DNA from: Xanthomonas campestris pv. campestris str. ATCC 33913
GTDB taxonomy: Bacteria; Pseudomonadota; Gammaproteobacteria; Xanthomonadales; Xanthomonadaceae
Length of the DNA stretch: 32,000 nucleotides
NCBI RefSeq assembly: GCF_000007145.1
Contig: NC_003902.1
Coordinates: 2,456,497-2,488,496, forward strand
Direction of reading: 5' to 3'
Part shown: one piece after another, positions 13,291 through 32,000 of the stretch
Layout: each line of letters opens with the position of its first letter
Numbering within the stretch: the first letter of the stretch is position 1
Translations under genes and position numbers: made by a program
Notes under the pieces: model-generated
What the model was told of the DNA's origin: nothing
Databases searched by the model: none
Seen by the model: the letters and a program-made list of their open reading frames with translations, nothing else

Positions 13291-13376
13291 ACGCTGCCAT
13301 AACTCTCATCTGCCGAAATGTCAGGCAATTAGCGCTAATATCGTGGCAGAGCGTAACGGGGCGTAATGCATGTTAC

Positions 13377-13385
13377 GGGGGGGGG
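13377..13385. repeat. Homopolymer G9
   Basis: A run of nine G lying between the two in-frame candidate start codons (13366 and 13402) of the giant ORF. Confidence 0.95.
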
Positions 13386-13401
13386 CACCACAGGGGATTC
13401 C

Positions 13402-16400: not shown

Positions 16401-19400
16401 CACCGAGCACCGGCAGACTCACGCAGAACTCGGCGAGCCCTGGCCGGTACGCATCACCGTGCAGCTCAACCAGGCGCTAGGCCTGCTGGCCCAGCTCAGC
16501 GAGCATCATGCGGCCCTGTCGGTTCCCTACGGCAAGACGATCGAACAGCTCGACGTCGCCCAGTTGCAGCAAATGTGGGAACAGGCCGAGCAGACGTTCT
16601 GGCCCAAGTCGTGGCTGGGCAAACGCAAGGTCACAACTCAACTGTCCAGCGCCACCACAGGCGGCTCGCAGCCTGACGTCGCCAACGATCTGCAGCATTG
16701 GAATGCCATCCGCGCCTTGCGCCAACGGATCCAGGCAATCGATCCAGGCCAGCAGTGTGCGGACGTCTGGGCAGGACTTGACACACAACAGGACAAGGTG
16801 AGCACGGCCCTGCGCTGGCAAATCGCCCTGGCTGCCGTACTCGAAGGCCAGGCCTGGGAAGACGACGGCTTCGACGCCATCGCCGGTGGCCAATGCGGAG
16901 CCACCCTGCAGGCCGATCTGCAACGGGCACGACGACTGCGCCAGCTCGACCAGGACATTGCTGCACATGCATCGCTGGAAACGGCGACCGACGGCCTATG
17001 GGCAGGCCATGCGACGCAATTCAACTGCCTGCGTGCCGCACTCGACTTCCTTAGCGACTGGCGCAGCCATGCCCAGCAAGGTGCATTGGATGCCCACACC
17101 TTGGTTGAGGAAGGCGCTTGCGGCCCCACGCTGGCACGCGACCACCAGACGCTTCGCCAGCGGGCCGATATGGAACAGGCGCTGGCTGCCCTGGACGACT
17201 TGCGCGAGTCCACCGCAGGCTTGTGGAAAGGTCTCGCGACCAACCTGGATGACCTCGAACAGGCCTGCCAGCTCCGAGAGGATCTGGCAGCCGTGCTGGC
17301 CCGCCTGGCCACTACGCCCGAACATATCTCTGCCTGCAAGGCACCGCTGCATACGTTATTGGGCGATGCCAATGCACTGCTGGAGCCAGGTGGTCGAATC
17401 GCGCTGGCCGGCGCCCGATACGTGGAAAAATGGGAACAGCTGCTACCCCGGCGCGAGGCACTCGCGACCACCGGACATTTTGCCGAGGCCGCCCAGACGC
17501 AGTGGCAGTCCATGTCACTCGACGGGCTGATCGAGCAAAGCCAGTCCATCGTGCGCGCCGAACACGGACTGCGCAGCTGGTGCGCATGGCGCCAGGCGCG
17601 CGACGAGGCGCTGGCACTGGGGCTGGCCACGCTGGTCCAGGGCATCAAGCAAGGCCAGGTCGGCCCGGACCAGGCACGCCGAACTTTCGAGGCCAACTAC
17701 GCGCGCTGGTGGCTCAACGCCGTGGTCGATCACGAGCCGGTCATCCGCGGCTTCGTCAGCGCCGAGCACGAACAGCGCATCCGCGATTTCCGCGAGCTCG
17801 ACGAGCGCTTCACCGCCCTGACCCGGGACTGGCTGCGCGCCCGCCTGTGCGCCGACCTGCCCTCGCAGGACAACGTCAGCCGCAACTCCGAATGGGGGCT
17901 GCTACGGCACGAGATGGGCAAGAAGCGTGCGCACCTGCCCTTGCGCGAACTGATGGCCCAGATTCCCGAGGCGCTGACCAAGCTCACGCCCTGCCTGCTA
18001 ATGAGTCCCCTGTCCATCGCACAGTACCTCCAGGCCGGGGCAAACGCCTTCGACCTGGTGATCTTCGACGAAGCCTCGCAGATCCCAGTCTGGGATGCGA
18101 TCGGCGCCATCGCCCGCGGCCACCAGGTCGTCATGGTCGGCGATCCCAAGCAGTTGCCGCCGACTTCCTTCTTCGACCGCGCCGAATCCGGGCTGGACGA
18201 CGAAGACGTCGAGGCCGACCTGGAGAGCATCCTCGACGAGTGCATCGGTGCTAACCTGCCGACACGGAATTTGAACTGGCACTACCGCTCCCGTCATGAA
18301 AGCCTGATCGCGTTCTCCAACCATGCCTACTACGACGGCGGACTGGTCACCTTTCCTTCCCCCGTCACCAACGATCGCGCGGTCAGCCTGCAGCCAGTCT
18401 CCGGCACTTACCAGAAAGGCGGTACACGGACCAACCCGGCCGAAGCGAAGGCGCTGGTGGCCGACGTGGTGGCGCGCCTGACGGCGCCTGGCTTCCGCGA
18501 AAGCGGGCTCACGATTGGGGTGGTCACCTTCAATGCCGAACAGCAGAAGCTGATCGAGGACCTGCTCGACGAGGCACGCCGCCAGGATCCAAGGCTGGAG
18601 CCCTATTTCGCCGAGAGCGAACTGGAACCGCTGTTCGTCAAGAACCTGGAAAGCGTACAGGGCGACGAACGCGATCTCATCTATTTCTCCATCACTTACG
18701 GTCCGGATCCCGCAGGCCAACTGGCCATGAACTTCGGTCCGCTCAACCGTCAAGGTGGCGAGCGCCGGCTCAACGTGGCCATTACACGCGCACGTCACGA
18801 ACTGCGTGTATTCGCCAGCTTCCACGCGGAGCAGATGGATTTGGCGCGAACGCAAGCAATCGGCGTGCGCGACCTCAAGCACTTCCTGGAATTCGCCGAA
18901 CGCGGTGCCCGTGCGCTGGCAGAAGCCAACTGCGGCAGCCTGGGTGGCTTCGACAGTCCCTTTGAACAGGCCGTGGCCGCAGCCCTGGCCCGGCGCGGCT
19001 GGCACGTCCAGCCGCAGATCGGCGCCTCCTCCTTCCGCATCGACCTCGGCATCGTCGATCCCGACGCGCCTGGACGCTACCTGGCAGGTGTGGAATGCGA
19101 TGGCGCCACCTACCATCGCAGCGCCACCGCACGCGACCGCGACAAACTGCGCGAGCAAGTCCTGCGCGGCCTGGGATGGGACATTGTTCGCGTCTGGTCC
19201 ACCGACTGGTGGATCGATCCGGCCGGCACGCTCGACAGACTGGATGCCCGCTTGCAAGCCGTACTCATAGCCCAGCGCGAGCAGCGCGCCGAACAGGCCG
19301 AGCGCGATGCCGAGGCCGAGAGCCTGGCGCAAGCGGCCATCGCGCAGGCCATAGCATCGGTGACGAAGCCAGACGGGGAAATGGCGCCCCCAGCTCAGGA

Positions 19401-20040
19401 CGCGGACCCGATCGCACCGGAAGTCTCGGCGACAGCTCCATCACAGCAAGTCGAGGAAGTCTTTGCTCGCCAGGTCTCCGCAGAAGCAGCCCATGCCAAT
19501 GCCGAAGAAACAACGCCACCGGAAGCCTCGCTCTATCGGATCACCGATCCCGCCGAAGCTGTGACCGGCGCCAATCCCGATCGCTTTTTCGACGGTGAGT
19601 ACAACGACATCCTGTTGACCATGATCGCCCACGTCGTCGATCACGAAGGGCCCGTGCTCGACGCCCTGCTGGCCCGCCGCATCGCCCGTGCCCACGGCTG
19701 GCTGCGTACAGGCGGACGCATCCGAGAGCGCGTTTTCCAAATCGCGCGTCCCCGCTATCGGACGACCGATGAAGAAGTCGGCACGTTCTACTGGCCCGAG
19801 CATCTGGATCCTGCGACAGAGCCTCCCTTTCGCGAGCCCGCCGACGAGGACAGCGTGCGGGCCGCTGATGAGATCAGTATCGCGGAATTGGCCTCCCTGG
19901 CTCGCGCCGTCATCGCACAGGGCACCCAAGGCGAAGGGATCTATCAAGCAATGGCGCGCAGGCTCAGGCTCCAACAGCTACGAGCAGCCAGCCGGGCACG
20001 TCTTGAAAATGTTGTGCGCTCTCTGCGTGCAGAGCCATGA
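13402..20040 (+). CDS. Giant multidomain helicase-nuclease, Hhe-like: transglutaminase-like N-domain, DUF4011-like region, Upf1-like SF1 helicase, Vsr/DUF559-like endonuclease, DUF3320-like C-terminus
   Basis: Start chosen at the ATG at 13402 (AGGGGA SD 7 nt upstream); an alternative ATG is at 13366.
- GTCFDLTLLFCAALEQAGL...EGHAFAGVWL: Cys/His papain-fold-like pair at nt 14098 and 14176.
- LLRWQRKLLDLSLRNNLLNF and GANTLYLALGFLSW: DUF4011-like.
- Walker A GPPGTGKSQT (15520-15546), DEASQ (18067-18081), VGDPKQLPPT, YRSRHESLI, QGDERD, LNVAITRAR.
- RIDLGIV...GVECDGATYH...DRDKLREQVLRGLGWDIVRVWSTDWW (18955-19215): Vsr/DUF559-type fold.
- ILLTMIAHVVDHEGPV...RIA tail. Confidence 0.85.
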   Translation: MDETQPQASAVAAELKIDVTLIAKLNLADFQNAVPLVRDLWLINETDQVHEQVELVLTSDPPFLKPRRWRIDALAAGSRYPIRDLDVNLDGGLLARLTEAETATVSLALRSVAADASNTALAQRDTHLELLPRNQWGGISHLPDLVAAFVQPNDPAVDRLLKRTAEVLRQNNRNPALDGYTGGAKRAWELASALWGATAGMQLDYALPPASFEQSGQKVRSPSQIESSGLGTCFDLTLLFCAALEQAGLNPLLVFTEGHAFAGVWLQSEEFSNTVVDDVTALRKRLRLKELVLFETTLITQRPTVPFSYATDRGAQQVDESQDAGFRLAVDIRRARLQRIKPLASAEAAVAAVSDSEATLSSPAVSVIEDAPDLPDSPPFKTEDASQLDPKDRLLRWQRKLLDLSLRNNLLNFKAGKKALKLEAPDPSTLEDLLASGQSLKLRPRPDLMDGADPRDQAIYEARERENVRRAHALEALQKREVFVGVPETELDSRLVDLFRSARTTLQEGGANTLYLALGFLSWTREDRDGQRYRAPLVLVPVSLQRKSARSGFTLSLHDDEPRFNPTLIEMLRQDFELNLGAVEGELPRDDAGLDVTAVWKAVGHAIKDIKGWEVTEDVVLSMFSFAKYLMWKDLAEHSEQLRENPVVRHLLDTPRDAYPPGAPFPQVRELDQHFDPKQVFCPLPADSSQLSAVLAASQGKDFVLIGPPGTGKSQTIANLIAQSLAQGRRVLFVSEKIAALDVVYRRLREIGLGEFCLELHSSKARKLDVLAQLQSAWSSSGQTDAEQWRAEAEKLKRLRDALNIYVERLHQRRRNGLSLFDAIGTVSAGHDIPTLPLAWLSADQHDHAGIDQLRSAVDRLEVNAQAIGHAALAQHPLALVGHRDWSPTWQQQLIAAARDVLPAAQATIESAHAFVQAIGLPSPLLTPETCEALLLLAQRLTLAAGHDWRFVLRPDARSLSQRLQEGAARVRRHAELNTLLSTPWPASVITACADGLALLTEHRQTHAELGEPWPVRITVQLNQALGLLAQLSEHHAALSVPYGKTIEQLDVAQLQQMWEQAEQTFWPKSWLGKRKVTTQLSSATTGGSQPDVANDLQHWNAIRALRQRIQAIDPGQQCADVWAGLDTQQDKVSTALRWQIALAAVLEGQAWEDDGFDAIAGGQCGATLQADLQRARRLRQLDQDIAAHASLETATDGLWAGHATQFNCLRAALDFLSDWRSHAQQGALDAHTLVEEGACGPTLARDHQTLRQRADMEQALAALDDLRESTAGLWKGLATNLDDLEQACQLREDLAAVLARLATTPEHISACKAPLHTLLGDANALLEPGGRIALAGARYVEKWEQLLPRREALATTGHFAEAAQTQWQSMSLDGLIEQSQSIVRAEHGLRSWCAWRQARDEALALGLATLVQGIKQGQVGPDQARRTFEANYARWWLNAVVDHEPVIRGFVSAEHEQRIRDFRELDERFTALTRDWLRARLCADLPSQDNVSRNSEWGLLRHEMGKKRAHLPLRELMAQIPEALTKLTPCLLMSPLSIAQYLQAGANAFDLVIFDEASQIPVWDAIGAIARGHQVVMVGDPKQLPPTSFFDRAESGLDDEDVEADLESILDECIGANLPTRNLNWHYRSRHESLIAFSNHAYYDGGLVTFPSPVTNDRAVSLQPVSGTYQKGGTRTNPAEAKALVADVVARLTAPGFRESGLTIGVVTFNAEQQKLIEDLLDEARRQDPRLEPYFAESELEPLFVKNLESVQGDERDLIYFSITYGPDPAGQLAMNFGPLNRQGGERRLNVAITRARHELRVFASFHAEQMDLARTQAIGVRDLKHFLEFAERGARALAEANCGSLGGFDSPFEQAVAAALARRGWHVQPQIGASSFRIDLGIVDPDAPGRYLAGVECDGATYHRSATARDRDKLREQVLRGLGWDIVRVWSTDWWIDPAGTLDRLDARLQAVLIAQREQRAEQAERDAEAESLAQAAIAQAIASVTKPDGEMAPPAQDADPIAPEVSATAPSQQVEEVFARQVSAEAAHANAEETTPPEASLYRITDPAEAVTGANPDRFFDGEYNDILLTMIAHVVDHEGPVLDALLARRIARAHGWLRTGGRIRERVFQIARPRYRTTDEEVGTFYWPEHLDPATEPPFREPADEDSVRAADEISIAELASLARAVIAQGTQGEGIYQAMARRLRLQQLRAASRARLENVVRSLRAEP

Positions 20041-20075
20041 CCTGAAGAGTTCGCCGACAGAACATGGAGGGAGCT

Positions 20076-21743
20076 ATGCCAAAAACCAGGCAACTCGGAC
20101 AAAAAAATGCGGCTATCACAACGACGCTTTCACTACGCCTGCTGCGTCCCGATAGGACAGTCGAGCAAGCGATCAGAGATACGAGCGCTGTGGCAGAGGT
20201 TGAGTGTGATTCTGGTCGCTTGTTTATAGCACAAGCTCCTGGAACTCCCCCCACTTGGCTCAGGGTCGTGAACCAGTTCACCAAACAGGGAGACCTGAAA
20301 CTCGAGAACAAGAGCTGTGCAGCAGTCCTATTTCTCGATATTCAGCCAGATGACAAGAGATTGCGAACTCGCACCTTTGCGCTTACGTTCGGCAGCGGTC
20401 ACCATGCCCTCGATACCGATGCATTTGTCCGAAACTTCGGCCTGAAGGTCACGCTCAACTCTGTTGCGCGGGGCGCACTAAAGAATCTTGATATCGCCAC
20501 GCTCGACAGTACGACCATTCAGAAACGCATTCAAGCAAGTAGAAAAGCCGATCTACAGGGTTTTGGAATTGATCTCCAGAACGATCTGTTGCGTCTCGCC
20601 GGTGGAGTTCCCACCGACACGTCATTTGCAAATGCGCTTGCAGGAAGAGACGCACTCACCCTAACCAGCAAGCTCTCAGCAACTGAAATTCCTGAAAAAT
20701 GCAAAACGGCGCTTAGGCTATTTGACGCCAACGATTACAAGAAAGACTATTCCTTTATTGATCAGATAATTCCCGTCCTGGACAAGAAAACACTTGCAGA
20801 TCTCGATGATATTGTCTTTAAAGAAATAAAAACCTTACTTGATGGAAAACCGTCAGACTTACACATAACTCTGCCGGAGATCATTGATCCGGAAGAGTCG
20901 AGTGACTTCGGATATTTCGGCATAGGCTTCAACTCTGGATCGAAGAAATCTTACGGCGAGCTTGCCATCGAGGACTATATTCTCGAATTACAGGCTGGAC
21001 GGCCACAAGAAATTTCTGACATAACAGAATTAAAGGCTAGCCATGAGATCCGAGTTGTAATTGACGGTCACGGAGATCGCCAGAGGCGGCGACGAGTCTA
21101 TGATTGTTTTGTGTACGAAGTGATCTACAAGAAGAAAACCTACGTGCTTTTCTCTGGAGAGTGGTATTGCATCGAAAGCAAGTTTTTCGACGCAGTGGAA
21201 AAAGACTATCAGGCGCTACTGGGGGTTTCATTCCACTTAAAAACGAAAGCCAAAAATGAGCAAGAGCTAATCTCAGAGCTCGACAAGAATAGCAACCTGC
21301 TAAATCTAGATAAAGTGAAAGCCTCGCCGTCAGGGGCAAAGGGCGCCAATCTTGAGCCTTGTGATTTCTTATCTCGCCGAAAGGAGTTTATTCACCTAAA
21401 AGACGGCCACGGCTCCGCCCCAATTAGCCATCTATGGAATCAAGGGCTCGTCTCGGCAGAAAGCTTTATTCGTGATGACGTTTTTCGAAAATCCATGCGA
21501 GACTCGGCAATCAAGCGACAAAAGGCTGCAAAAAAGTCAAAATTTGAGCTATTGCTACCCGATGGCCGTTCAAAAGTAACTTCCACGGACTACAAGGTGG
21601 TTTTTGGCATAATGCGACATCCGTACCAGCGGAGCAAACGACTCGGCCTTCCGTTTTTTAGCAAAGTGAGTCTTCGTGCCGTCGCAAGCCGGATCCAACT
21701 AATGGGCTATGCCGTGGAAGTACACCTTATTGAAAAGACATAA
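20076..21743 (+). CDS. Hypothetical 555-aa protein, low GC; possibly TIGR04141/DUF6119-type 'sporadically distributed' family
   Basis: ATG at 20076 is preceded by GGAGGGAG; an alternative ATG is at 20064. It starts 36 nt after the helicase-nuclease stop on the same strand. Lys/Asp/Phe-rich codon usage contrasts sharply with its neighbours. The C-terminal stretch EPCDFLSRRKEFIHLKDG weakly resembles a nuclease-type core. The family name is from recollection only. Confidence 0.8.
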   Translation: MPKTRQLGQKNAAITTTLSLRLLRPDRTVEQAIRDTSAVAEVECDSGRLFIAQAPGTPPTWLRVVNQFTKQGDLKLENKSCAAVLFLDIQPDDKRLRTRTFALTFGSGHHALDTDAFVRNFGLKVTLNSVARGALKNLDIATLDSTTIQKRIQASRKADLQGFGIDLQNDLLRLAGGVPTDTSFANALAGRDALTLTSKLSATEIPEKCKTALRLFDANDYKKDYSFIDQIIPVLDKKTLADLDDIVFKEIKTLLDGKPSDLHITLPEIIDPEESSDFGYFGIGFNSGSKKSYGELAIEDYILELQAGRPQEISDITELKASHEIRVVIDGHGDRQRRRRVYDCFVYEVIYKKKTYVLFSGEWYCIESKFFDAVEKDYQALLGVSFHLKTKAKNEQELISELDKNSNLLNLDKVKASPSGAKGANLEPCDFLSRRKEFIHLKDGHGSAPISHLWNQGLVSAESFIRDDVFRKSMRDSAIKRQKAAKKSKFELLLPDGRSKVTSTDYKVVFGIMRHPYQRSKRLGLPFFSKVSLRAVASRIQLMGYAVEVHLIEKT

Positions 21744-21874: not shown

Positions 21875-22258
21875 TCAATTGGTAATCCCCCCGCTTTTAG
21901 CGGACTCCAGAAGTGGAGTTATGCAGCCATTGCCAGTTTCATCGCTGGCGTGATGCCGCCTAGCGCCATGTTCGGGCTCATGGTTGTAAGTCCATAGCCA
22001 GCGCGTGGCTTTGTCCTGCACCTGCTCGATGGTGTCGAACAGGGTGCGGGCCAGCCAGGCGTAGCGGACCGTGCGGTTGTAACGTTCAACGTAGGCGTTC
22101 TGTTGTGGCTTGCCCGGCTGGATGTGCTCGATGCGGATGCCGTTGCGTTCCGCCCACGCCAGCAGTGCTGCGCTGATGTATTCGGGCCCGTTATCGCAGC
22201 GAATGACGCGCGGCTTGCCGCGCCACTCGATGACCTGCTCCAACGATCGGATCACCCG
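21875..22258 (-). mobile_element. IS3-family element, right-end fragment (C-terminal ~125 codons of OrfB integrase core)
   Basis: RVIRCDNGPEYISAALLAWAERNGIRIEHIQPGKPQQNAYVERYNRTVRYAWL (rve domain with the catalytic E region). The terminal sequence ...GGGGGGATTACCA ends in CA at nt 21880. The N-terminal two-thirds are absent. Confidence 0.75.
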
Positions 22259-22261
22259 GGC

Positions 22262-23111
22262 AGATGGCTACTACCACGTGTCTGACAAATACGTGGCGCT
22301 GTTCAGCCACTTCATTCCCTGTGGCGTGCACGAGGGCATCTACATCCTCGACGGCCTGTTGGCCAACACTTCCGACATCCAGCCTGAGATCGTCCATGGG
22401 GACACGCAGGCCCAAAGCTATCCGGTCTTCGGCTTGGCCCACATGCTGGGTATCCAGCTGATGCCCAGGATCCGAAACATCAAGGATCTGACGTTCTTCC
22501 GACCCGAACCGGGCAGGGCCTATAAGAACATCCAGGCGCTATTCGGGGACAACATCGACTGGCAGCTGATCGCCACCCATCTTCACGACATGCTGCGTGT
22601 GGTGATCTCCATCCGACTGGGCAAGATCACCGCGTCCTCGATCCTGCGCCGGCTTGGCACCTACAGCCGGAAGAACAAGCTGTACTTTGCTTTTCGGGAG
22701 CTGGGCAAGGCTGTTAGAACACTGTTCTTGCTGCGCTACATTGATGACAACAAGATTCGCAAAACGATTCATGCCGCGACCAACAAGAGCGAGGAGTATA
22801 ACGGCTTCGTGAAATGGGTCTTCTTTGGCAGCCAAGGGATCATTGCTGAGAACGTCCAACACGAGCAGCGCAAGATCATCAAGTACAGCCAGCTGGTGGC
22901 CAACATGATCATCCTCCACAACGTGGAGGGTATGAGCCGGACGTTGGCTGAGATGCGGAAGGAGGGGGTCGAACTGACGCCCGAGATCCTGGCCGGTCTG
23001 TCGCCTTATCGGACCAGTCACATCAATCGCTTTGGCGATTACCACCTAGATCTTGAAAGGGAAGTGGCGCCCTTGAGCTACACGGCCAAGGTCCTCGAAC
23101 AGGCCCCATAG
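22262..23111 (+). pseudogene. tnpA: Tn3-family transposase, C-terminal ~283 codons only
   Basis: Collinear with the Tn3 TnpA C-terminus: GIYILDGLL, EIVHGDTQAQSYPVFGLAHMLGIQLMPRIRN, LGKITASSILRRL, AFRELGKAVRTLFLLRYIDD, NGFVKWVFFG, QLVANMIILHNV, LSPYRTSHINRFGDYH. It abuts the truncated IS3 fragment head-on. Confidence 0.85.
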
Positions 23112-23570: not shown

Positions 23571-24641
23571 ATGCCGAACAAAATCTCCGGCTCAATTGCA
23601 CCATCGGCCAGCAGCGACGCGATGAAGAGTGCCGACTGCGCTGAGAATATTAAAGAGGAAGTTGTATCAAAACACGTTCATCAAGCGGTTCCCGCAGAAC
23701 TCGCCGATCTACCAAGCCGGCAACCACCTCGGTCAAAAACAGCACTTTATCAGGTAATCCAGAAATTCAGAGACCCTTTGCCTCTCCCGCCACCACCCAC
23801 GTCACATCCTGTTCTAGCTTACGACAGGGATCTAGGATCATCCGATAATTTTCGCTCTTCGGATGAATTTGACCTCCCCGAAAGTCTCAATCCGACTGGT
23901 TGGAAAAACCTGCACGTTTCAGGTAGCGGCAGTATAGCGTCCATTGGACAGATTACTAGGTTGAGGCCGTCCAAGGAGCGCCCAGTGGTCGTTCTGGATG
24001 CTCGCGAAGAGTCGCATGCCATTGTCGGCGGTTATCCGGGTACTTGGCGTACACCAAACAACTGGGGCAATGCTGGCAAATCACGTGACGAAGCCTTGGC
24101 AGACGAGCAACAGAGGATTCAAGCGCTTAAATCGCAAGAGACGGTACATATCTTCCATCGCAAAGATGTCAAGAGCGAAGCCCGCAACCCACGCGGAGCG
24201 ACGTTAAGTAAGCCACTGATTTTTAGCGAAGAAGAGCTTGTGAGAGCTGCGGGCGCCAAATATGTACGTTTAACAGTGACAGATCATCTTTCACCACGGG
24301 CGGACGATATTGATGCGTTTATTGCAATGGAGCGGGAGATGGCCCATGATGAGAGACTGCATGTACATTGTGGTATGGGCCTAGGCCGTACGACAATATT
24401 TATTGTCATGCATGACATACTAAGAAATGCTGCAATGTTATCGTTTGATGATATCATCGAACGGCAACGTAAATTTAATCCAGGGCGAAGCTTGGATAAT
24501 AATAAAGACGTTTCTGACAAGGGGCGCTCAGAATTTCGTAATGAACGGTCAGAGTTCCTTCCTCTATTCTACGAGTACGCCAAGCAAAATCCAAAGGGCC
24601 AGCCATTGTTATGGTCCGAATGGCTCGACCACAATGCATAA
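23571..24641 (+). CDS. xopH: Type III effector XopH (AvrBs1.1), HopAO1-like dual-specificity phosphatase/phytase fold
   Basis: Cys-phosphatase P-loop HVHCGMGLGRTT (about nt 24365-24391). Low-GC gene immediately upstream of avrBs1, as in the known avrBs1 locus. Confidence 0.8.
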   Translation: MPNKISGSIAPSASSDAMKSADCAENIKEEVVSKHVHQAVPAELADLPSRQPPRSKTALYQVIQKFRDPLPLPPPPTSHPVLAYDRDLGSSDNFRSSDEFDLPESLNPTGWKNLHVSGSGSIASIGQITRLRPSKERPVVVLDAREESHAIVGGYPGTWRTPNNWGNAGKSRDEALADEQQRIQALKSQETVHIFHRKDVKSEARNPRGATLSKPLIFSEEELVRAAGAKYVRLTVTDHLSPRADDIDAFIAMEREMAHDERLHVHCGMGLGRTTIFIVMHDILRNAAMLSFDDIIERQRKFNPGRSLDNNKDVSDKGRSEFRNERSEFLPLFYEYAKQNPKGQPLLWSEWLDHNA

Positions 24642-24731
24642 ATCGCAAGTACATTTTCGGCTATGACGGACTTGTGCTCGATGCGCTGGCGGCTTTCTCG
24701 ATAAATATCAATTAATATAAATATCGAACTA

Positions 24732-26069
24732 ATGTCCGACATGAAAGTTAATTTCTCTTCAAAAATAATAGATTCAACACCCAGTGAAGAGGAGGTCGCC
24801 ACTCAGCAAGATAGTTATACGAAATCTGGACTGGTGGCGCCATCGCTCGATTCACAAGCCTTGAAAAAAGCACCTAGAAAAAGAGTAATAAAAGAAAATA
24901 TAGCTGCTTTGCACACCTCATCGTTAGAGCGAGTTCATCAAAAGAAGGTATTAGTTCAGAATTTAGCGCAGTTGCAGAGAGGGTTGGCTAAGATAAATGG
25001 TAGAGTCGAACTCGAAGAGCTAATTGATGGATTTTCAGTCAAGGAATTGCTAATAAAAAGAAATCCAAAGATTGCTGAAGAGTATGGAGAAGGAAATCCT
25101 TTAATGATTCGATCTCTAAGATTTTCAAACCCCCAAGAGGTGACTAGTAAGCTTGGGGCGGAAGGAAAAACGCCAGCCAAAAGAGAGGTTGATACGATTT
25201 GCAATAAATCCACGCTGCATGACATTGTCATGACGCCCGCCTCCCTTGTAAAAAAGGAAGTGCGGATGAACCTGATATCTGAAGTCCCAAGGGCGAAGGA
25301 TAAACAAAAATACAGAGGTCTTCCTTCAGTCGTATATGGCCAAAGCAGCCGCCGTAGTGAATCAGACTATCTAACGTCTCGAAATGGTTTCGGCGACGTG
25401 CACTCTTTCAAATCCAATAACGCATTTAATTCCGACTACGAAAAAATATGTGGGTCGCTTAGCCATGCCGAAAAGTTGGGGTTAATTGAAAGGAATCTTA
25501 CTCCCTTTATAAGGCATGATCCAGATAGAATCTCCACCGACTTTGTTCACTCTATTGAAGAATTGGCTGAACACCAGATGCTATTGCAATCAAGAAAACC
25601 TGCCAGTGCTTTGCGGCATAATGAATATTGCACCAAGCTTGAACTGTGGGATGCTAAAGCTATAGCAGTTGGTGAATCTCGTGCCTTGGCGGTCGCTACC
25701 CTGATTGAATTTAATTTGGAGATGTTGTCGATAGCACAAGAGATAGATGATGATGGGCACAAGAGTAAAATGGTCGCCGATTTTATCGAGCGCCAACTAT
25801 CATGGCTTGGCCCACAAACCGCACTTGACAGCAAGTCAACGCTTGAAAGGGTTTCAGCGGTGACCATACAAGAAAGGGAATTTATTGCTAATGAGATTAG
25901 CCGATCGTTGCGTCAAGGTGTTTCACTTTGCACTTACGATAAAGATGAAGCAGGAAGTCATATCCGTGAAATGAGTTTGTTGGATTTTAGGGTTGAAGAA
26001 ATCATAGAGGGGATAAGTATTTTTATTTCCTCCAAGCTTTTACATGTTACAAATGCAGGAGAAGCGTAA
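24732..26069 (+). CDS. avrBs1: Type III effector / avirulence protein AvrBs1 (445 aa)
   Basis: The length (445 aa), the N-terminus MSDMKVNFSSKIIDSTPSEEE and the position after the phosphatase gene match my recollection of AvrBs1 (AvrA family). Strongly AT-rich relative to the host genome. Confidence 0.8.
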   Translation: MSDMKVNFSSKIIDSTPSEEEVATQQDSYTKSGLVAPSLDSQALKKAPRKRVIKENIAALHTSSLERVHQKKVLVQNLAQLQRGLAKINGRVELEELIDGFSVKELLIKRNPKIAEEYGEGNPLMIRSLRFSNPQEVTSKLGAEGKTPAKREVDTICNKSTLHDIVMTPASLVKKEVRMNLISEVPRAKDKQKYRGLPSVVYGQSSRRSESDYLTSRNGFGDVHSFKSNNAFNSDYEKICGSLSHAEKLGLIERNLTPFIRHDPDRISTDFVHSIEELAEHQMLLQSRKPASALRHNEYCTKLELWDAKAIAVGESRALAVATLIEFNLEMLSIAQEIDDDGHKSKMVADFIERQLSWLGPQTALDSKSTLERVSAVTIQEREFIANEISRSLRQGVSLCTYDKDEAGSHIREMSLLDFRVEEIIEGISIFISSKLLHVTNAGEA

Positions 26070-26125
26070 GAGAAGAAGTATCCGCCACAATCGAAGCGGC
26101 GGACCGACGTCCTTACGCCCTTCTG

Positions 26126-26216
26126 GAGGGTCGGCAGGGATTCGTGTAAAAGACCTTTGCTGAGAGCCAGTTAGCTCACTTTTGGCTGTTTTTTAAACGA
26201 ATCCCTTCCGACCCTC
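26126..26216. mobile_element. MITE copy 2 (91 bp), inverted relative to copy 1
   Basis: GAGGGTCGGCAGGGATTCGT...ACGAATCCCTTCCGACCCTC, with 19/20 complementary termini. The interior GTTAGCTCACTTTTGGCTGTTTTTT is the reverse complement of the copy-1 interior. Confidence 0.8.
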
Positions 26217-26307
26217 AACATGGCGCCAGTTTCGCACCAGCCCACTCCGGCGGCCATGGGAAATCGGTACTGGCCCATCGCCCCCCGTTGTGTCTGAGGT
26301 ATTCGCC

Positions 26308-27231
26308 TCAACGGAAATACGGATAGTCCCTGCGCACCCGCTCCTCCACCGTCACGGCGAGCGGATGCGACGCACACTCGGTCAGGTTGCGCAGGATAGC
26401 CCAGGGCGTGTCAATCAGCAGATGGTCGGTGTCGAAATGCGGCAGGCCGTCGCGCTGGCGCAGTGCCTGCACGGCGAGCAGTTCGGCTGGGTAGACGCGA
26501 TCGATGTCCTTCTCAAACTCGTAGGTGTTGCGCTCGGTGCCATCCTTGCTGCGGGCGATGTGCCAGTCGGCCGCGACCTGCATGGCCGCCTGGAAAGCCG
26601 CTGCGTCGGTGCTGCGCCAGTGTTCGAGCACGGCCTGGTATTCGGGGATCAGCGGGTGCACAGGCTGGTAATGGGTCGAAATGCCGAAAGCCTGTGCGAA
26701 CAGGAAAATCAGGAAGGCGTCGTTAGTGCCTTTACCCCACCCCTCGCGACGCCACTCATCGGGCTTCAGGGCCTGGTCCTTTTGCGCGACCTGGACCAGG
26801 AAGCGGGCACCAGCCTCGGTGGCCTCCCACTGCGAGAGCATTGCGGTGGCAGCCACCTTCATGCTGGTCCAGAACGGTAGCAGCGGCTGCCTCTCAGTGG
26901 TCCAGGCCAGGGTCACGGCGGCCTCGAAACGAAATGCGATTGAGCGCATCGCCACCGCCCAGCACAGCGGCTGGGCGAGTTCGTCCAAGCGGCCCTGGCC
27001 GCTGAGGGCGCAGGCTTGGACCGCATACACATGGCCAGCCCAAGTTAGTTCCATCCAAAGTTTGCCCGACACGGGGCCGGATGCCGCAAGATAGTTCTCT
27101 ATGTTGTCGAAATATCGCTGTGGTTCATTGTCCCGGCTGGCGTGCTCGATCCAGCGATCACACCGCTTGAAGGTCTTCTTCAACGAAGGATGCCACGTGG
27201 GCAGGTGTTGGTCGCTCTTGTCTTTTGCCAT
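26308..27231 (-). CDS. Hypothetical Trp-rich (helical by composition) protein (307 aa), last gene of the helicase operon
   Basis: ATG at 27231 (MAKDKSDQ...) has GGATGAG 4 nt upstream; an alternative start is at 27273. Trp/Ala/Leu-rich, with no catalytic motif recognised. Same strand as the upstream GIY-YIG gene, 128 nt downstream of it. Confidence 0.7.
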   Translation of the reverse strand: MAKDKSDQHLPTWHPSLKKTFKRCDRWIEHASRDNEPQRYFDNIENYLAASGPVSGKLWMELTWAGHVYAVQACALSGQGRLDELAQPLCWAVAMRSIAFRFEAAVTLAWTTERQPLLPFWTSMKVAATAMLSQWEATEAGARFLVQVAQKDQALKPDEWRREGWGKGTNDAFLIFLFAQAFGISTHYQPVHPLIPEYQAVLEHWRSTDAAAFQAAMQVAADWHIARSKDGTERNTYEFEKDIDRVYPAELLAVQALRQRDGLPHFDTDHLLIDTPWAILRNLTECASHPLAVTVEERVRRDYPYFR

Positions 27232-27359
27232 CAACTCATCCTCGGGCCGCGCTGAGCTAGCGTGCCGGATCATCTCCGCGATGGAGTCTTTACTGCTGAT
27301 TGATCTACTTTGAGGCCCAACGAAGCATCAGGTTGCGTACGCGCCCTGTGGAAATACCT

Positions 27360-28541
27360 TTACTGTTTGACCAGCGCAGCCCGGGCCGGATCATAGATGT
27401 AGTCGGTGATGGATCCATCCTGGATGCGCTTTACAGCCTCATCAATGACAGGCAAAGGCACGAGAAACCACTCACGTGGGCGGACATTATCGCCAAAGCG
27501 ATCTTGGAGTTTCAGATCCAAGCGCGCCGATTGGAAAATGCGGTGAAAGAGATTTTCCAAACGGACGTGATTGAGATTGGAAAGCTTATAGGTAGCCACC
27601 ACTTCTACCTTGGCTAGCATATAAGTCGGATCCTTTTGAGCATTGGCGATGCGCGCTTCGACGCTCCCGCCTGTGATGCCGATTTTATGGATCAACTCAC
27701 GATGTGCGACCACGAATGGATTGTTAGACAGGCTACGCACCACATAGATGGTGCCGTTAACGATATCTTTCAGCTCCAACGTATCGCCAAAGAGAGGACC
27801 AGCGTCGTCATCTGTGATGCGTCGACCCGTGTCGTCCTTGTAGAGGGCTCGTTGCAATGAGCGTTGCAGCAGATTGCTCTCAGTGCCGTTTGAGTAGATG
27901 ACGCGCAGCCTAGCATCGGCTTCGCCATTGGGGGCGCGGATAGTTTCCCCTACTTCGACGACATAGGCCATCTGGCCGCCCAGGATGAAGAAGTTTCCTT
28001 CGGCCACGCTCGCATCCCGGCCAAACCGCAGCGTCTTGCGAAGGCCTGTCTTAATATCCCTTTCCACTCGCTCAAATAGAGGCTGGAACCGATCGAAATC
28101 GACACATGCGGTCCGGTTTGCCACATCCTCAGCAGCTTTACGCTCTTCGAAAGATCGGACATGACGCAGATTGGTGATGTCGTCCTCACCGGATCCAAGG
28201 CCAAGTTCAGCCAGCAGCGCCGCATCATCTAAGTCATCGGCAGCATCAGGCGCGGCGCGGCTGGGTGGCGCCGATAGCAGGCCTTGGGAATCTAGTGGCA
28301 TAAGCAACGCGTGGGCGCTGGTCAGAGCCCTCAATCGATCCAGCCGAACGGCGTAAAGGCGCTCGAAAATGTCGCGGTCTTCGCCGTGTTGGGGAGCTCG
28401 CCCATGCTCTTGGACGAACCGGAGAATGTCTTCAAACCCTGCCAGGAGGCGTTCCTCCTGTGGGGTGTGGCTACTGGCCTTGATCGGTGTCGCTTCAAGG
28501 CCCAGTTCTTCCAGCAGGTCCTCGCCTTCCCGATCAGCCAT
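27360..28541 (-). CDS. T5orf172/GIY-YIG-superfamily domain protein (393 aa)
   Basis: Start re-assigned to the ATG at 28541 (MADREGEDLLEELGL...), which overlaps the helicase stop by 8 nt. C-terminal domain GTIYVVRSL...LIHKIGITGGSVEARI...LENLFHRIF...PREWFLVPL fits the T5orf172 (GIY-YIG-like) pattern. The N-terminal half is acidic with a repeated LL(E/A)ELGL motif. Confidence 0.8.
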   Translation of the reverse strand: MADREGEDLLEELGLEATPIKASSHTPQEERLLAGFEDILRFVQEHGRAPQHGEDRDIFERLYAVRLDRLRALTSAHALLMPLDSQGLLSAPPSRAAPDAADDLDDAALLAELGLGSGEDDITNLRHVRSFEERKAAEDVANRTACVDFDRFQPLFERVERDIKTGLRKTLRFGRDASVAEGNFFILGGQMAYVVEVGETIRAPNGEADARLRVIYSNGTESNLLQRSLQRALYKDDTGRRITDDDAGPLFGDTLELKDIVNGTIYVVRSLSNNPFVVAHRELIHKIGITGGSVEARIANAQKDPTYMLAKVEVVATYKLSNLNHVRLENLFHRIFQSARLDLKLQDRFGDNVRPREWFLVPLPVIDEAVKRIQDGSITDYIYDPARAALVKQ

Positions 28542-30639
28542 TGCCGCCTCCCTGGGCTGCTGCTGCCTTTTGCTGAGCGATGTGGCGTTGCAACGAGGCC
28601 ACGCCTTCGGCCATGCGACGCTCCCAAGGATCTGCCGAGCCGATTTCAGGCAAGCGCCCCCGCTCGTTCTTGAAGGCAACGGCGCGCTTGGCCAAGTCCT
28701 TAGCTTCCTCGTAGGAGATAGCCAGGCGCTTTGCTGCAATAGCGGATTGAACTTGACGAAGCACACGTTCGTCCATGGCCTTGGCCAGGACGGCGTAGGC
28801 GGCGTCGAACGGATTGATCCGATCAATCAGGTCGATATCAAGGTCTTTAACATTGACAAATTTCCGGACACCCTCGATCAAGGACATGTTTGGCGACTCT
28901 CCCTTCGCATCAACTTGGGCTATCACCTGCTTGGCTTGCTGGGTAATGTTCAGAACCGCAATAGCGTGCTGGCGCACAGCCTCGTGATCTTCCTCACTCA
29001 GGTCCGGGTAGCGATCTCGAACGATCTTCGCCATCTGGACTTGGGTGATTTCCTCAGGCAGCGTATTTTCCTTGTCGAACAACCCTCGTTCCAAGGTCGG
29101 CTTGTCCTGAATGAAACCAGTAATGACCTCATTGATATCCTCTTTGCAGATACGCGCTGCCTCAGGAGACTTGGGTTGCGCGAGGCCGTTGATTTCAACG
29201 TGGACTTCTCCGGTCGCGGCGTTTACGCCTACATTGGCGTTGCCTTCCTGGTAGCCCTCATCACCGTAGTCAAACCCCTCTTTCTCGCCTGCATTCTTGG
29301 GCGTGAACTCAAACCGCGGCGCCAGCACTTGCTCCATCAGCAGGCTTGCAGCGATGGCTTTAAGCGTGTCATTCACGGCATCGACCACTATCTCCGAGTC
29401 TGCGGCCGGCTCAGCAATGAGGTTAGTGAAGCGGGAGCGCCCCTTACCTGGTGCATCGCGAGTGGCTCGACCAATGATCTGGACGATCTCAGTCAGGCTA
29501 CTGCGGTAGCCAATGGTCAGAGCGTGCTCACACCAAATCCAGTCGAACCCTTCCTTGGCCATCCCAAGGGCAATGATGATGTCGACGTTGTCGCGGTTGT
29601 CCTTCTGAGCCGGATCCTTCAAGGCCGTAAGGATCTTGGAGCGACGGGCCGCGTCGCTGTCGTCCACCAAGTCAGCCACCCTGATGATCCGCCCACCCTC
29701 GATTTCAATCAGGTGAAAGCCCGTTGCTTCATCGCGTCCCTTCCAATCGCCCAGCGAGGCGAGGATTTCGTCAACCTCTTTGTGCTTGTCCTTCAAAGAT
29801 TCGCGGGCATTGACATTGGGGATATGGATGATCGTCTTCAAAGACGGATCCAGAACCTTCATGATCGCGTCTAGGTAGCGACCGGTATAGAAGAAATACC
29901 CGATGTCCAGGCTTTTGAGGTAGGTATAGCCGTTTAGCTGCTCGTAGTAGGTATAGGAGACCGACTCGAACTTGCCCTCATCTTCCGGCGAAAGAACCGC
30001 GACCGCATCCCCACGGAAATACGAACCCGTCATCGCAACCACATGGACCTGTCCACGGCCAATGAGTTGTCCGAGCTGCGTGCCTAGCTTGTTGTCCGGG
30101 TTGCTACTGACATGGTGGAATTCATCAATGGCGATAAGGCGTCCGTCAAAGGCTTCGATACCGAATTCATCCACGGCGAAACGAAAGGTGGCATGAGTGC
30201 ACACCAGAACCGGATCTTCGCTGGCCAGGAAAGCACCTACTGCCTTCACTTTGGACGGGGCTACCTTTCCGTTGTCCTCACCTGGCGCATTGCAAAGGTT
30301 CCACTGAGGCCTAACCATCCAGTCCGCCCAAAAGCCCTGCTCAGACAATTTCTCGTCGGCAAAGCTGCCACCGATGGAACGTTCGGGCACTACGATGATG
30401 GCCTGCTTTAAGCCCTGGTTCTTGATCTTGTCCAAGGCAATGAACATTAAGGCTCGGGACTTACCGGAGGCCGGGGGCGACTTGATCAGCAGGTGTTGCT
30501 CGCCTCGCTTGGCATAGGCCTTCTCCTGCATCGGACGCATGCCCAGAGCATTGATCTTGCTGGAAGCACCCGTCTGTGCCGTCGCGATGGACACTGACGG
30601 GACGGTGTATTTGTTGGTCGGATTGCCTTCCATGCTCAT
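28534..30639 (-). CDS. SF2 DEAD/DEAH-type helicase (ResIII-like N-lobe plus helicase C-lobe), 701 aa
   Basis: Motif I KSPPASGKSRA, motif II IAIDEFHH (30112-30135), motif III MTGSYFRGD, motif VI QIIGRATRD. The start ATG overlaps the upstream gene's stop (ATGA at 30636-30639). Confidence 0.85.
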   Translation of the reverse strand: MSMEGNPTNKYTVPSVSIATAQTGASSKINALGMRPMQEKAYAKRGEQHLLIKSPPASGKSRALMFIALDKIKNQGLKQAIIVVPERSIGGSFADEKLSEQGFWADWMVRPQWNLCNAPGEDNGKVAPSKVKAVGAFLASEDPVLVCTHATFRFAVDEFGIEAFDGRLIAIDEFHHVSSNPDNKLGTQLGQLIGRGQVHVVAMTGSYFRGDAVAVLSPEDEGKFESVSYTYYEQLNGYTYLKSLDIGYFFYTGRYLDAIMKVLDPSLKTIIHIPNVNARESLKDKHKEVDEILASLGDWKGRDEATGFHLIEIEGGRIIRVADLVDDSDAARRSKILTALKDPAQKDNRDNVDIIIALGMAKEGFDWIWCEHALTIGYRSSLTEIVQIIGRATRDAPGKGRSRFTNLIAEPAADSEIVVDAVNDTLKAIAASLLMEQVLAPRFEFTPKNAGEKEGFDYGDEGYQEGNANVGVNAATGEVHVEINGLAQPKSPEAARICKEDINEVITGFIQDKPTLERGLFDKENTLPEEITQVQMAKIVRDRYPDLSEEDHEAVRQHAIAVLNITQQAKQVIAQVDAKGESPNMSLIEGVRKFVNVKDLDIDLIDRINPFDAAYAVLAKAMDERVLRQVQSAIAAKRLAISYEEAKDLAKRAVAFKNERGRLPEIGSADPWERRMAEGVASLQRHIAQQKAAAAQGGGNG

Positions 30640-31595
30640 TTCTTAGCCTTCTTCTTTGGCTTGCCTTGGCCCGCCGTCATCTTAGTGTAGAGGTCGAACA
30701 GCTTTTCCAAGCGTTCGGTGTCATTGCGGAAGCGCCGACCGATGTAGATCCGCTCCAGGACTTCGTCATTGCGCTCGTGGGCACGGAGAAGGTCATCCGG
30801 CATATTATCAGGGCCGTAAAGATCGGCAATTGTGGCCGGATAGTGCGACTCTCGTGCAAGCAGAATGTCTTCCGCGCATCGAGTTAGATCCGCTTTGTTT
30901 TGTTCAGTGAGAGTCGGCACCGGAAAGGTGTTCCAACCCAAAGTATTTGAGTAGGAATAACGCATCTCTAAGCGCACACAGACAGCCGCCACCCAGACAA
31001 GATGCATCTTTGACACAATCAGCGCAAAGTTCCAAAGAGGCGCGTCATACAGCGCAAACGCCTTGTTATGGACTATCGCCTCTTTCGACAGCAGAACAAC
31101 TGGCAGATACGGCCTGTTCTCCGAGCTTACAATCGGAACGACCAGCAAACTGCTTTCCGCTTCATATTGATCTCGGAAGCGCCACGGCGTCTCAACTAGC
31201 TTTTTTGCCTGAACATCCTTTGTCTTAGTTTTACGATCCTTGCGGACTTTTTCAACACGAGCCCATACAGCAGGGATTTCTTGCGCTAGCGCAAGGTTTT
31301 CGTCTGTAATCCACAAACACGTGCGGGGCGTGCCACTGATGCTCTCACGTGAGCCATACAAGGGACGTATAAATTCAGCAACCCGCGCATCTTCTCCTAC
31401 CATCCCGGACGCTTCATCCAGCGAAAGCATTAGCTCATTCGCGTAGTAAGGATGATTGCCAAATTGCATAGGTGCGCGCTCGTCTGGAACTTTGGATCGA
31501 GGTGAAACCAGAACATTGTCTCCTGGAACAAGATAAGGGCTTATATTAGAGACAGTGCGAACGGTAACTAGTCGCCCCTGAAAAACCCCCTTCAA
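30636..31595 (-). pseudogene. MmeI/PglX-like N6-adenine DNA methyltransferase, C-terminal TRD portion only (catalytic domain missing)
   Basis: The 319 codons match the C-terminal third of MmeI-family enzymes: ISPYL, RTCLWI, VEKVRKDR, ETPWRFRD, SSENRPYLP, SKMHLVWV, RLEMRYSYSNTLGWNTFPVP, DLYGPDNMPDDLLRAHERNDEVLERIY. No SAM-binding or NPPY/NPPF motif is present. The frame opens with a TTG right at the IS junction. Confidence 0.75.
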
Positions 31596-32000
31596 GCACC
31601 AAGTGTCATCGGCGACAGCGGCACGGCGCTAAAGGATGGCCATCCCATCGCCCGCATCCAGGCACGCAAAAACGCGATCCAGCGCAGCAGCCAGCGCAGG
31701 TTGTAGCCGGCGGCGCAGCCGAGTACGTGCAGCGCATCGCCTTGTGCACCTTTCAGCCTGCAGCGACGCAACCTGCAGTCGTCTTTCAGATGTCCGATCA
31801 CCGGTTCCACCGCCTGCCGTCGTTTGATCCAGCGCCATTGCCGTCGCGTCAGCGTCTTGGCCTTGCCACGATGGAGCACCTGCACGCCATCGACCTCGCG
31901 CCCGCGATAGCCCAGGTCCACGATCGCCACCGTCGGTTCTACGCTCAGATCCTGCAGCAACCCGCGTGTCTGCTCCAGCTGCTCGGCCAAGGTGTCGCCG
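31592..32000 (-). mobile_element. IS5-family insertion sequence, transposase C-terminal part (continues beyond the right edge)
   Basis: DDE_Tnp_1-type C-terminus: VDLGYRG...RRQAVEPVIGHLKDDCRLRRCRLKGAQGDALHVLGCAAGYNLRWLLRWI. The ORF ends at 31592 exactly where methyltransferase homology begins. Confidence 0.8.

Follow-up and report, generated by a model that had tools for sequence, protein, structure and literature searches.

A group of four minus-strand open reading frames (ORFs) was analysed in a 32,000-nucleotide stretch of the Xanthomonas campestris pv. campestris (Xcc) ATCC 33913 genome (NC_003902.1, positions 2,456,497 to 2,488,496; hereafter, the window). Positions 27360-31570 of the window very probably represent a decayed version of the yeeA(dnmA)-yeeB-yeeC module, a restriction-modification-like set of three genes that is assigned to 'group 2' of the MmeI family. 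The trio is already known and is not novel. An earlier note, made from the sequence alone, had described the four ORFs as a split, type ISP-like restriction system that could not be placed in any named system; the combination corresponds to the yeeA(dnmA)-yeeB-yeeC cluster, a module of three genes to which the fourth does not belong.

Identification of the yeeA-yeeB-yeeC module

The module and the element that interrupts it comprise the following features.

31571-32000, minus strand: end of IS1478, an insertion sequence (IS) of the IS5 family, interrupting yeeA and extending past the window edge (identity to plasmid copies)
31592-31990, minus strand: C-terminal ORF of the IS1478 transposase (DDE_Tnp_1 match)
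30636-31570, minus strand: 3′ remnant of a yeeA/dnmA-like gene encoding the target-recognition domain (TRD) and the C-terminal domain (Pfam, PADLOC, tblastn, comparison with a public contig)
30636-30639, minus strand: ATGA stop/start overlap of yeeA and yeeB (direct sequence reading)
28534-30639, minus strand: yeeB-like superfamily 2 (SF2) helicase/translocase gene, 701 amino acids (aa), intact (Pfam DEAD, ResIII)
28534-28541, minus strand: 8-nt overlap of the yeeB stop and the yeeC start (direct sequence reading)
27360-28541, minus strand: yeeC-like gene of a T5orf172/GIY-YIG-superfamily protein, 393 aa, intact (Pfam)

The four minus-strand ORFs (30636-31595, 28534-30639, 27360-28541, and 26308-27273) are present, and direct reading of the sequence confirmed both overlaps described in the earlier note. 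The 3′ end of yeeA reads ...AAG AAA TGA, and the ATG of the helicase gene lies within the ATGA at 30639-30636. The true start of the third ORF is the ATG at 28541, and a GGAGG Shine-Dalgarno sequence precedes the overlap ATGGCTGA. Pfam analysis assigned only MmeI_TRD and MmeI_C to the first ORF, a DEAD/ResIII SF2 helicase with a short match to the pseudomurein-binding repeat (PMBR) to the second, and T5orf172/MUG113 to the third, with no match for the fourth. NCBIfam gave zero matches for all four proteins, and PADLOC clearly recognized the first one only; its marginal matches (PbeA and SngC for the helicase, PDC-S57 for YeeC) were discarded as assignments. The MmeI TRD, the SF2 helicase, and the T5orf172/GIY-YIG domain were called in the earlier note as well; the N6-adenine methyltransferase (MTase) domain that it also listed is absent from the window, and the N-terminal and helical-spacer domains of YeeA are likewise gone (Pfam, PADLOC).

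In 2009, Morgan et al. divided MmeI homologs into two sets, with and without a PD-ExK motif (PMC2731913). The PD-ExK-less proteins are unlike MmeI in their first 100 residues and are 'invariably' flanked by genes for a DEAD helicase (YeeB) and a protein with a GIY-YIG motif (YeeC). It was proposed that the MmeI-like subunit confers specificity and modification, with cleavage left to the helicase and nuclease subunits in an architecture like that of type I; YeeA alone and MslORFHP had no endonuclease activity (PMC2731913). The same combination was found here: likeness to MmeI except for the first ~100 residues, no PD-ExK motif, and a helicase gene followed by one for a GIY-YIG protein. Intact YeeA matched MmeI (PDB 5HR4) with an E-value of 5.7e-142, the alignment running from residue 90/109 onward, and all five Pfam MmeI domains were called in intact YeeA homologs. 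A profile built from 25 YeeA N-termini aligned to MmeI only from 85/104, past the catalytic residues D70/E80/K82. No conserved ExK was present in an alignment of 71 YeeA sequences. A PDB search with the single sequence of the YeeA N-terminus returned noise only. This motif check was made on YeeA homologs, the window copy having no N-terminus.

A truncated yeeA-like gene together with yeeB- and yeeC-like genes was reported by He et al. in 2007 from island XVR13, the avrBs1 island, in Xcc 8004 and ATCC33913 (PMC2246292). As avrBs1- and xopH-like genes lie beside the module at 23571-26069, the window locus is apparently the XVR13 yee locus. In strain B100, the genes are annotated as yeeB and yeeA, with the REBASE entry XcaBORF2400P for yeeA (PMC13133917).

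Interruption of yeeA by IS1478

The yeeA remnant corresponds to residues ~615-924 of an intact protein of ~924 aa, with Pfam E-values of 2.2e-74 for MmeI_TRD and 1.6e-16 for MmeI_C. It covers positions 615-909 of the 912 positions of the PADLOC model REase_MTase_IIG, and in a tblastn search with intact X. cucurbitae YeeA as query, residues 582-916 aligned to the window. From ~31564-31569 to its end at 32000, the window is 99.8-100% identical to IS1478 copies of X. campestris plasmids. Over window positions 24726-31570, a public contig (L102) shows only 6 mismatches in 6845 nt (99.9% identity); the identity stops at 31570, and the contig continues with a further 1484 nt of uninterrupted yeeA encoding the MmeI_hel and MmeI_Mtase domains. 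Thus, the IS1478 junction (31570/31571) falls in the linker that connects the MTase domain with the TRD. The 'start' of the mechanical ORF call, a TTG at 31595, is already part of IS1478.

YeeA forms a mosaic (window positions 30636-31570 compared with L003, L101, L102, and L006). Among Xanthomonas alleles with 98-99% identical YeeB proteins, YeeA identities amount to 96-99% in the N-terminal and helical-spacer domains, 67-76% in the MTase domain, and only 34-38% in the TRD core. DNA homology to X. cucurbitae begins only at 31061. This mosaicism points to swapping of specificity via recombination.

Conservation of gene order

For a survey of gene order, one genome per species was scanned with a helicase alignment, and the best 80 of at least 595 loci were kept (67-77% identity; Proteobacteria, Acidobacteriota, Armatimonadota, and Bacillota). 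The T5orf172 gene (yeeC) followed immediately 3′ of the helicase gene (yeeB) at 78 of the 80 loci, the other two being contig ends, and an MmeI-like gene (yeeA) was located upstream of yeeB on the same strand at 79 of 80. The 8-nt yeeB/yeeC overlap was observed at 66 of 78 loci and the ATGA yeeA/yeeB overlap at 29 of 79; given this recurrence, the overlaps are not due to chance. X. cucurbitae, X. oryzae, and Stenotrophomonas maltophilia each encode a 916-926-aa protein with five MmeI domains, a 701-aa helicase (4-nt overlap), and a 393-395-aa T5orf172 protein (8-nt overlap). The yeeA-yeeB-yeeC order was also found on plasmids that represent five phyla or classes (Pseudomonas, Synechococcus, Arthrobacter, Lactobacillus, and Aeromonas), and 263 plasmids carry a yeeB homolog.

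The earlier note had asked for conservation of a four-gene order elsewhere. Intact loci show the order of the trio, and the fourth gene was absent at all 80. The slot is hypervariable: at 69 loci, the genes following yeeC formed 66 clusters, and they are defence-island neighbours rather than conserved components. They are often of the abortive-infection or HEPN type, such as Abi-alpha in P. fluorescens, AbiJ_NTD3 plus Abi_C in S. maltophilia, and a HEPN protein in Synechococcus. In X. cucurbitae and X. oryzae, GmrSD is encoded slightly further downstream of yeeC.

Variable cargo of 0.2-2.8 kb occupies the yeeA/yeeB junction at approximately 40 of 79 loci (L019-L098; also L001, L002, L010, and L012). 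It comprises DUF1016/YhcG-like PD-(D/E)xK proteins (10 loci), AlbA_2-type ATP-binding proteins (8 loci), RhuM-like proteins (3 loci), toxin-antitoxin pairs, and unknowns; the first three labels were given by sequence reading rather than by a hidden Markov model search. Similar passenger genes occur inside type I hsd operons.

Acinetobacter accounted for 72 records matching yeeB, and most of the A. baumannii plasmids listed hold fragments of yeeB only (residues 16-178 or 168-686). Published maps place pieces of yeeB, yeeA, and yeeC within the blaOXA-23 transposons Tn2006 and Tn2009. Remnants of the yee module may travel with the carbapenemase gene in A. baumannii.

Properties of YeeB and YeeC

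The window YeeB and YeeC share 98% and 92% identity, respectively, with their X. cucurbitae counterparts. An alignment of 17 YeeB sequences revealed invariant helicase motifs: Walker A (G59-K60-S61), DEFHH (172-176), TGS (204-206), and QIIGRxTR (387-394). When the helicase profile was run against the PDB, LlaBIII (E 0.013) and LlaGI (E 0.021) were weak matches, albeit among the top ones. The identical helicase is recorded as 29 member sequences.

In YeeC, residues 263-373 matched MUG113 (4.2e-16) and T5orf172 (5.5e-13) in Pfam. Conservation across 81 homologs is at least 98% for residues G263, Y266, K286, G288, R297, E329, H333, and E357, all of which the window copy has, giving the motif pattern G263-x-x-Y266, K286-I-G288, R297, E329/H333, and E357-W-F. 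The protein, described as GIY-YIG-like in the earlier note, has thus kept GIY-YIG-type residues. The T5orf172 protein Odn of phage ICP1 is an active nuclease of the GIY-YIG superfamily that retains the catalytic pair of Arg and Glu (PMC8263062).

The YeeB C-terminus (window 28570-28734, residues 636-690) and the YeeC N-terminus (28311-28478, residues 22-77) have a helical motif in common, F..F...GR.P...D..ER.LA. (hhalign E 0.002, probability 14%; BLASTP E 0.06). It may represent a docking module. The Pfam match to the 'pseudomurein-binding repeat' in YeeB probably reflects a short helical motif rather than a module for cell-wall binding, and the name given to the product by NCBI, 'pseudomurein-binding repeat-containing protein', probably misleads.

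The fourth gene and a toxin gene stub

Two further features follow yeeC.

27232-27310, minus strand: 3′-end stub of a gene for an X-Tfe (XVIPCD type IV secretion toxin), upstream extent uncertain (tblastn, DNA alignment)
26308-27231, minus strand: fourth gene, 307 aa from the ATG at 27231, candidate orphan immunity protein of the X-Tfi type (homolog context)

The fourth gene does not belong to the yee module. Translational coupling of all four genes, as claimed in the earlier note, holds for yeeA/yeeB and yeeB/yeeC; the fourth gene is separated from the yeeC stop by a 128-nt spacer, which contains the stub of another gene. Its real start is the ATG at 27231, since most of the 99 homologs found are 297-309 aa long; all homologs with a named organism come from the Xanthomonas/Lysobacter group or relatives. 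The DNA homology to the X. cucurbitae yee locus stops at 27369, ~10 nt from the yeeC stop codon. The X. campestris contigs that carry the fourth gene end inside it and are uninformative beyond IS1478.

XVIPCD is the secretion signal of Xanthomonadales type IV toxins. In three genomes (X. citri, a metagenome-assembled genome of a Xanthomonadaceae member, and Lysobacter), the fourth-gene homolog is located 3′ of a gene for a ~700-aa protein with a 1-nt overlap. These upstream proteins are 41-44% identical to each other and all have a glutamine-rich C-terminus; an XVIPCD was called in the X. citri one. In the window, the last eight codons of such a gene are clearly recognizable (..QRGPRMS-stop): tblastn placed residues 699-706 of the X. 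citri effector at 27257-27234, and in the DNA alignment, identity extended over ~30 bases as far as the TGATG, where the stop of the stub overlaps the start of the fourth gene. Judged from this context, the fourth gene is more probably than not an immunity gene orphaned from a Xanthomonadales type IV secretion toxin pair; the partner toxin gene would have been lost except for its final codons.

The AlphaFold model of the fourth protein is entirely alpha-helical with a high predicted local distance difference test (pLDDT) score of 94. None of its PDB fold matches reached an E-value of 0.001, and a profile search of the PDB was empty. PA2201 (2fef) was best by TM-score (probability 0.72, TM 0.43), which is a hint only. 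The arrangement resembles the X-Tfe/X-Tfi toxin-immunity pairs of the type IV secretion system with which Xanthomonadales kill bacteria, in that homologs of the fourth gene lie directly downstream of the genes for the ~700-aa proteins with overlapping stop and start codons. It differs from them in that the toxin gene of the window is gone except for the last codons and that the fourth protein has neither sequence nor significant fold similarity to any solved immunity protein.

Other genes of the island

Elsewhere in the window, positions 13366-20040 (plus strand) encode a 2224-aa protein with DUF4011, an AAA_11/AAA_12 superfamily 1 helicase, REase_MTES_1575, and DUF3320; PADLOC matched it to the candidate system PDC-S37 with 1290 bits and to Hhe with 602 bits. 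It is followed at 20064-21743 (plus strand) by a gene for a DUF6119 protein. Positions 13366-21743 are a second defence-type locus of the same island. The stretch between this locus and the fourth gene contains the following.

22110-23111: Tn3-family transposase fragment
23571-24641: gene for a PTP-like phytase effector, xopH/avrBs1.1-like
24732-26069: avrBs1-like gene

The effector genes have a GC content of 0.43-0.45, compared with 0.55-0.67 for the remainder of the window when the low-GC stretch at 20-26 kb is left aside.

Comparison with known systems

The closest relatives are the yeeA(dnmA)-yeeB-yeeC cluster of Bacillus subtilis with its homologs and yeeAB of Vibrio crassostreae, with the same three proteins in the same order, tight coupling, a location on mobile islands or plasmids, and no second MTase. 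The window copy differs in that the N-terminal, helical-spacer, and MTase domains of YeeA were lost to IS1478 and in that the 701-aa Xanthomonas YeeB has a C-terminal module that Pfam labels as PMBR. B. subtilis YeeB and YeeC reportedly miss several short stretches of their C-terminal domains in comparison with the Vibrio proteins (PMC9973331). B. subtilis YeeA, or DnmA, methylates GACGAG on one strand (PMC7261158).

The likeness to MmeI and type IIL/IIG enzymes (5HR4) extends from residue ~104 to the C-terminus and includes all five Pfam MmeI domains. By analogy, YeeA may read an asymmetric site and methylate one strand. The first ~85-100 residues, the region of MmeI D70/E80/K82, cannot be aligned and contain no conserved ExK; cleavage in YeeABC would presumably be delegated to the helicase and nuclease subunits. 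As YeeA lacks the nuclease motif, a true MmeI-type IIG/IIL enzyme was ruled out.

Type ISP enzymes (LlaGI, LlaBIII) contain the same functional inventory, i.e., a nuclease, an SF2 translocase, a gamma-class N6-adenine MTase, and a TRD, and their helicase core is weakly similar to that of YeeB. However, a type ISP enzyme is one continuous chain that includes an Mrr-like PD-(D/E)xK nuclease, whereas YeeABC consists of three polypeptides with a GIY-YIG-superfamily nuclease and an MTase of the MmeI lineage. Membership in type ISP was rejected on account of the three separate ORFs and the missing PD-(D/E)xK nuclease. As an analogy of function, the likeness drawn in the earlier note to a split type ISP enzyme with GIY-YIG instead of PD-(D/E)xK is reasonable, and it extends to type I; it coincides with the speculation of Morgan et al. 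in 2009, and the LlaBIII/LlaGI matches are weak.

With type I systems (HsdR/M/S), YeeABC shares separate subunits, an ATP-driven translocase, and a presumed dependence of restriction on the MTase; the operons of both carry the same kinds of passengers (DUF1016-like, AlbA_2 ATPase, RhuM-like, toxin-antitoxin pairs). In contrast to type I, YeeABC has no HsdS, the TRD being fused to the MTase, its nuclease is separate from the translocase, and methylation is probably restricted to one strand of an asymmetric site. Type I membership was rejected because the partner genes are absent. Bacteriophage exclusion (BREX) was also rejected, as already in the earlier note: PglZ and BrxC are absent near intact loci and on plasmids (Pfam), and weak PglX matches were confined to the MTase core. 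For the defence island system associated with restriction-modification (DISARM), YeeA and the TRD fragment gave weak DrmMI matches only, the helicase gave no Drm match, and no DUF1998 or PLD neighbours were present, so that this assignment was rejected, too.

The suggestion of the earlier note that REBASE or PADLOC might recognize the locus held in part. The MTase is recognized as type IIG, and PADLOC contains models for neither the helicase nor the T5orf172 protein. Intact, nuclease-less YeeA (locus L003, 7230-10004) scored 933 bits with REase_MTase_IIG.

Proposed mechanism and alternative readings

In the proposed mechanism, YeeA would act as a ~924-aa MmeI-like protein whose N-terminal domain carries no PD-ExK nuclease motif. 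Its TRD would read an asymmetric site, and N6-adenine methylation of one strand would mark self DNA. On unmodified DNA, YeeA would recruit or license YeeB as SF2 ATP-dependent translocase and YeeC as T5orf172/GIY-YIG-superfamily nuclease, which would then cut the DNA; restriction would require the MTase subunit, a trait shared with type I, type III, and type ISP systems. We infer this division of labour, including the dependence of cleavage on YeeA. In the window, IS1478 has inserted between the parts of yeeA for the MTase domain and the TRD, and yeeB and yeeC are still intact and translationally coupled. The persistence of yeeB-yeeC next to a yeeA without its MTase half fits a YeeA-dependent, type I-like cleavage, as does the deletion of dnmA in B. 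subtilis, which is not toxic (PMC7261158). As the MTase half is lost and cleavage would require YeeA, the module is most probably inactive in this genome.

Several observations weigh against the assignment or the mechanism. The family assignment is based on architecture, on the traits described by Morgan et al., and on the published Xcc and B100 annotation rather than on a direct comparison with B. subtilis YeeB (AAB66475) and YeeC (AAB66476), and the match to the locus of He et al. on gene content (avrBs1 beside truncated yeeA, yeeB, and yeeC), not on a base-for-base comparison. In YeeC, the second GIY-YIG tyrosine is replaced by K286; its AlphaFold model is poor (pLDDT 54, from a shallow alignment of 74-95% identity), and the fold search with this model gave nothing significant, the top match being the GIY-YIG nuclease Slx1 (E 0.22). 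The conserved B. subtilis cluster neither restricted plasmid uptake nor protected against three phages (PMC9973331, PMC7261158). Furthermore, a Moraxella osloensis plasmid carries yeeB-yeeC without yeeA within 6 kb upstream, and the intactness of yeeB and yeeC after the loss of yeeA leaves room for an MTase-independent role.

An unplaced four-gene split type ISP-like system with the fourth protein as an extra component deserves hardly any credence. Its parts list is indeed like that of type ISP, the helicase profile has LlaBIII and LlaGI among its best, though weak, PDB matches, and models for the helicase and the T5orf172 protein are lacking in both PADLOC and NCBIfam. However, the trio has been in the literature since 2009, and truncated yeeA with yeeB and yeeC has been known from Xcc since 2007. 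The absence of the fourth gene from the surveyed loci, the hypervariable slot after yeeC, and the end of the X. cucurbitae homology next to the yeeC stop all speak against a fourth component, the homologs of which sit in XVIPCD toxin operons; the single chain and the PD-(D/E)xK nuclease of type ISP are both missing here. Almost as improbable is an intact system that does not cleave, as in BREX, or whose main role is epigenetic regulation by an orphan MTase, as proposed for B. subtilis DnmA, with YeeB and YeeC as relics. YeeA, PglX, and DrmMI do share an MmeI-like MTase (weak PADLOC matches), and the B. subtilis studies found a role in gene expression (PMC9973331, PMC7261158) and no restriction. 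On the other hand, PglZ, BrxC, BrxL, and DrmA-C were present at none of the examined loci, and strict conservation of both the ATPase residues and those of GIY-YIG type in different phyla is contrary to what is expected of relics. The hypervariability of the TRD is typical of restriction specificity under diversifying selection, and in Vibrio crassostreae, yeeAB conferred resistance to a phage subclade (bioRxiv 10.1101/2021.05.05.442762).

It is improbable, too, that YeeB-YeeC form an autonomous helicase-nuclease defence of the abortive-infection or DNA-damage type that is independent of YeeA and still active in this strain. Both ORFs are full length and coupled after the loss of the 5′ half of yeeA, the identical helicase recurs in 29 member sequences, the M. 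osloensis plasmid does without an adjacent yeeA, and B. subtilis tolerates the deletion of dnmA. Yet yeeA accompanies yeeB-yeeC at all but one of the 80 loci, frequently with ATGA coupling to yeeB, and the Vibrio resistance was assigned to yeeAB; the intactness of the two genes perhaps reflects a recent IS insertion, the uninterrupted allele being still 99.9% identical. Unlikely, though worth considering, is a broader variant in which yeeB-yeeC keep a function of their own, either as MTase-independent defence or through re-targeting by another partner, and in which the yeeA/yeeB junction is a landing site for accessory defence genes. YeeABC would then be a scaffold for composite systems rather than a plain restriction-modification unit.

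Implications

The assignment to a decayed yeeA-yeeB-yeeC module amounts, for the window, mainly to a correction: what seemed to be a novel system of four genes is a published trio in degraded form plus an unrelated neighbour. It also exposes a gap in current tools: in PADLOC and REBASE-style annotation, YeeA passes for a complete type IIG enzyme, and with no models for YeeB and YeeC, the trio is not seen as a unit. The trio is widespread, with at least 595 loci in species-representative genomes and 263 plasmids. The natural truncation of yeeA beside intact yeeB-yeeC is modest evidence that the nuclease arm does no harm when the MTase is missing.

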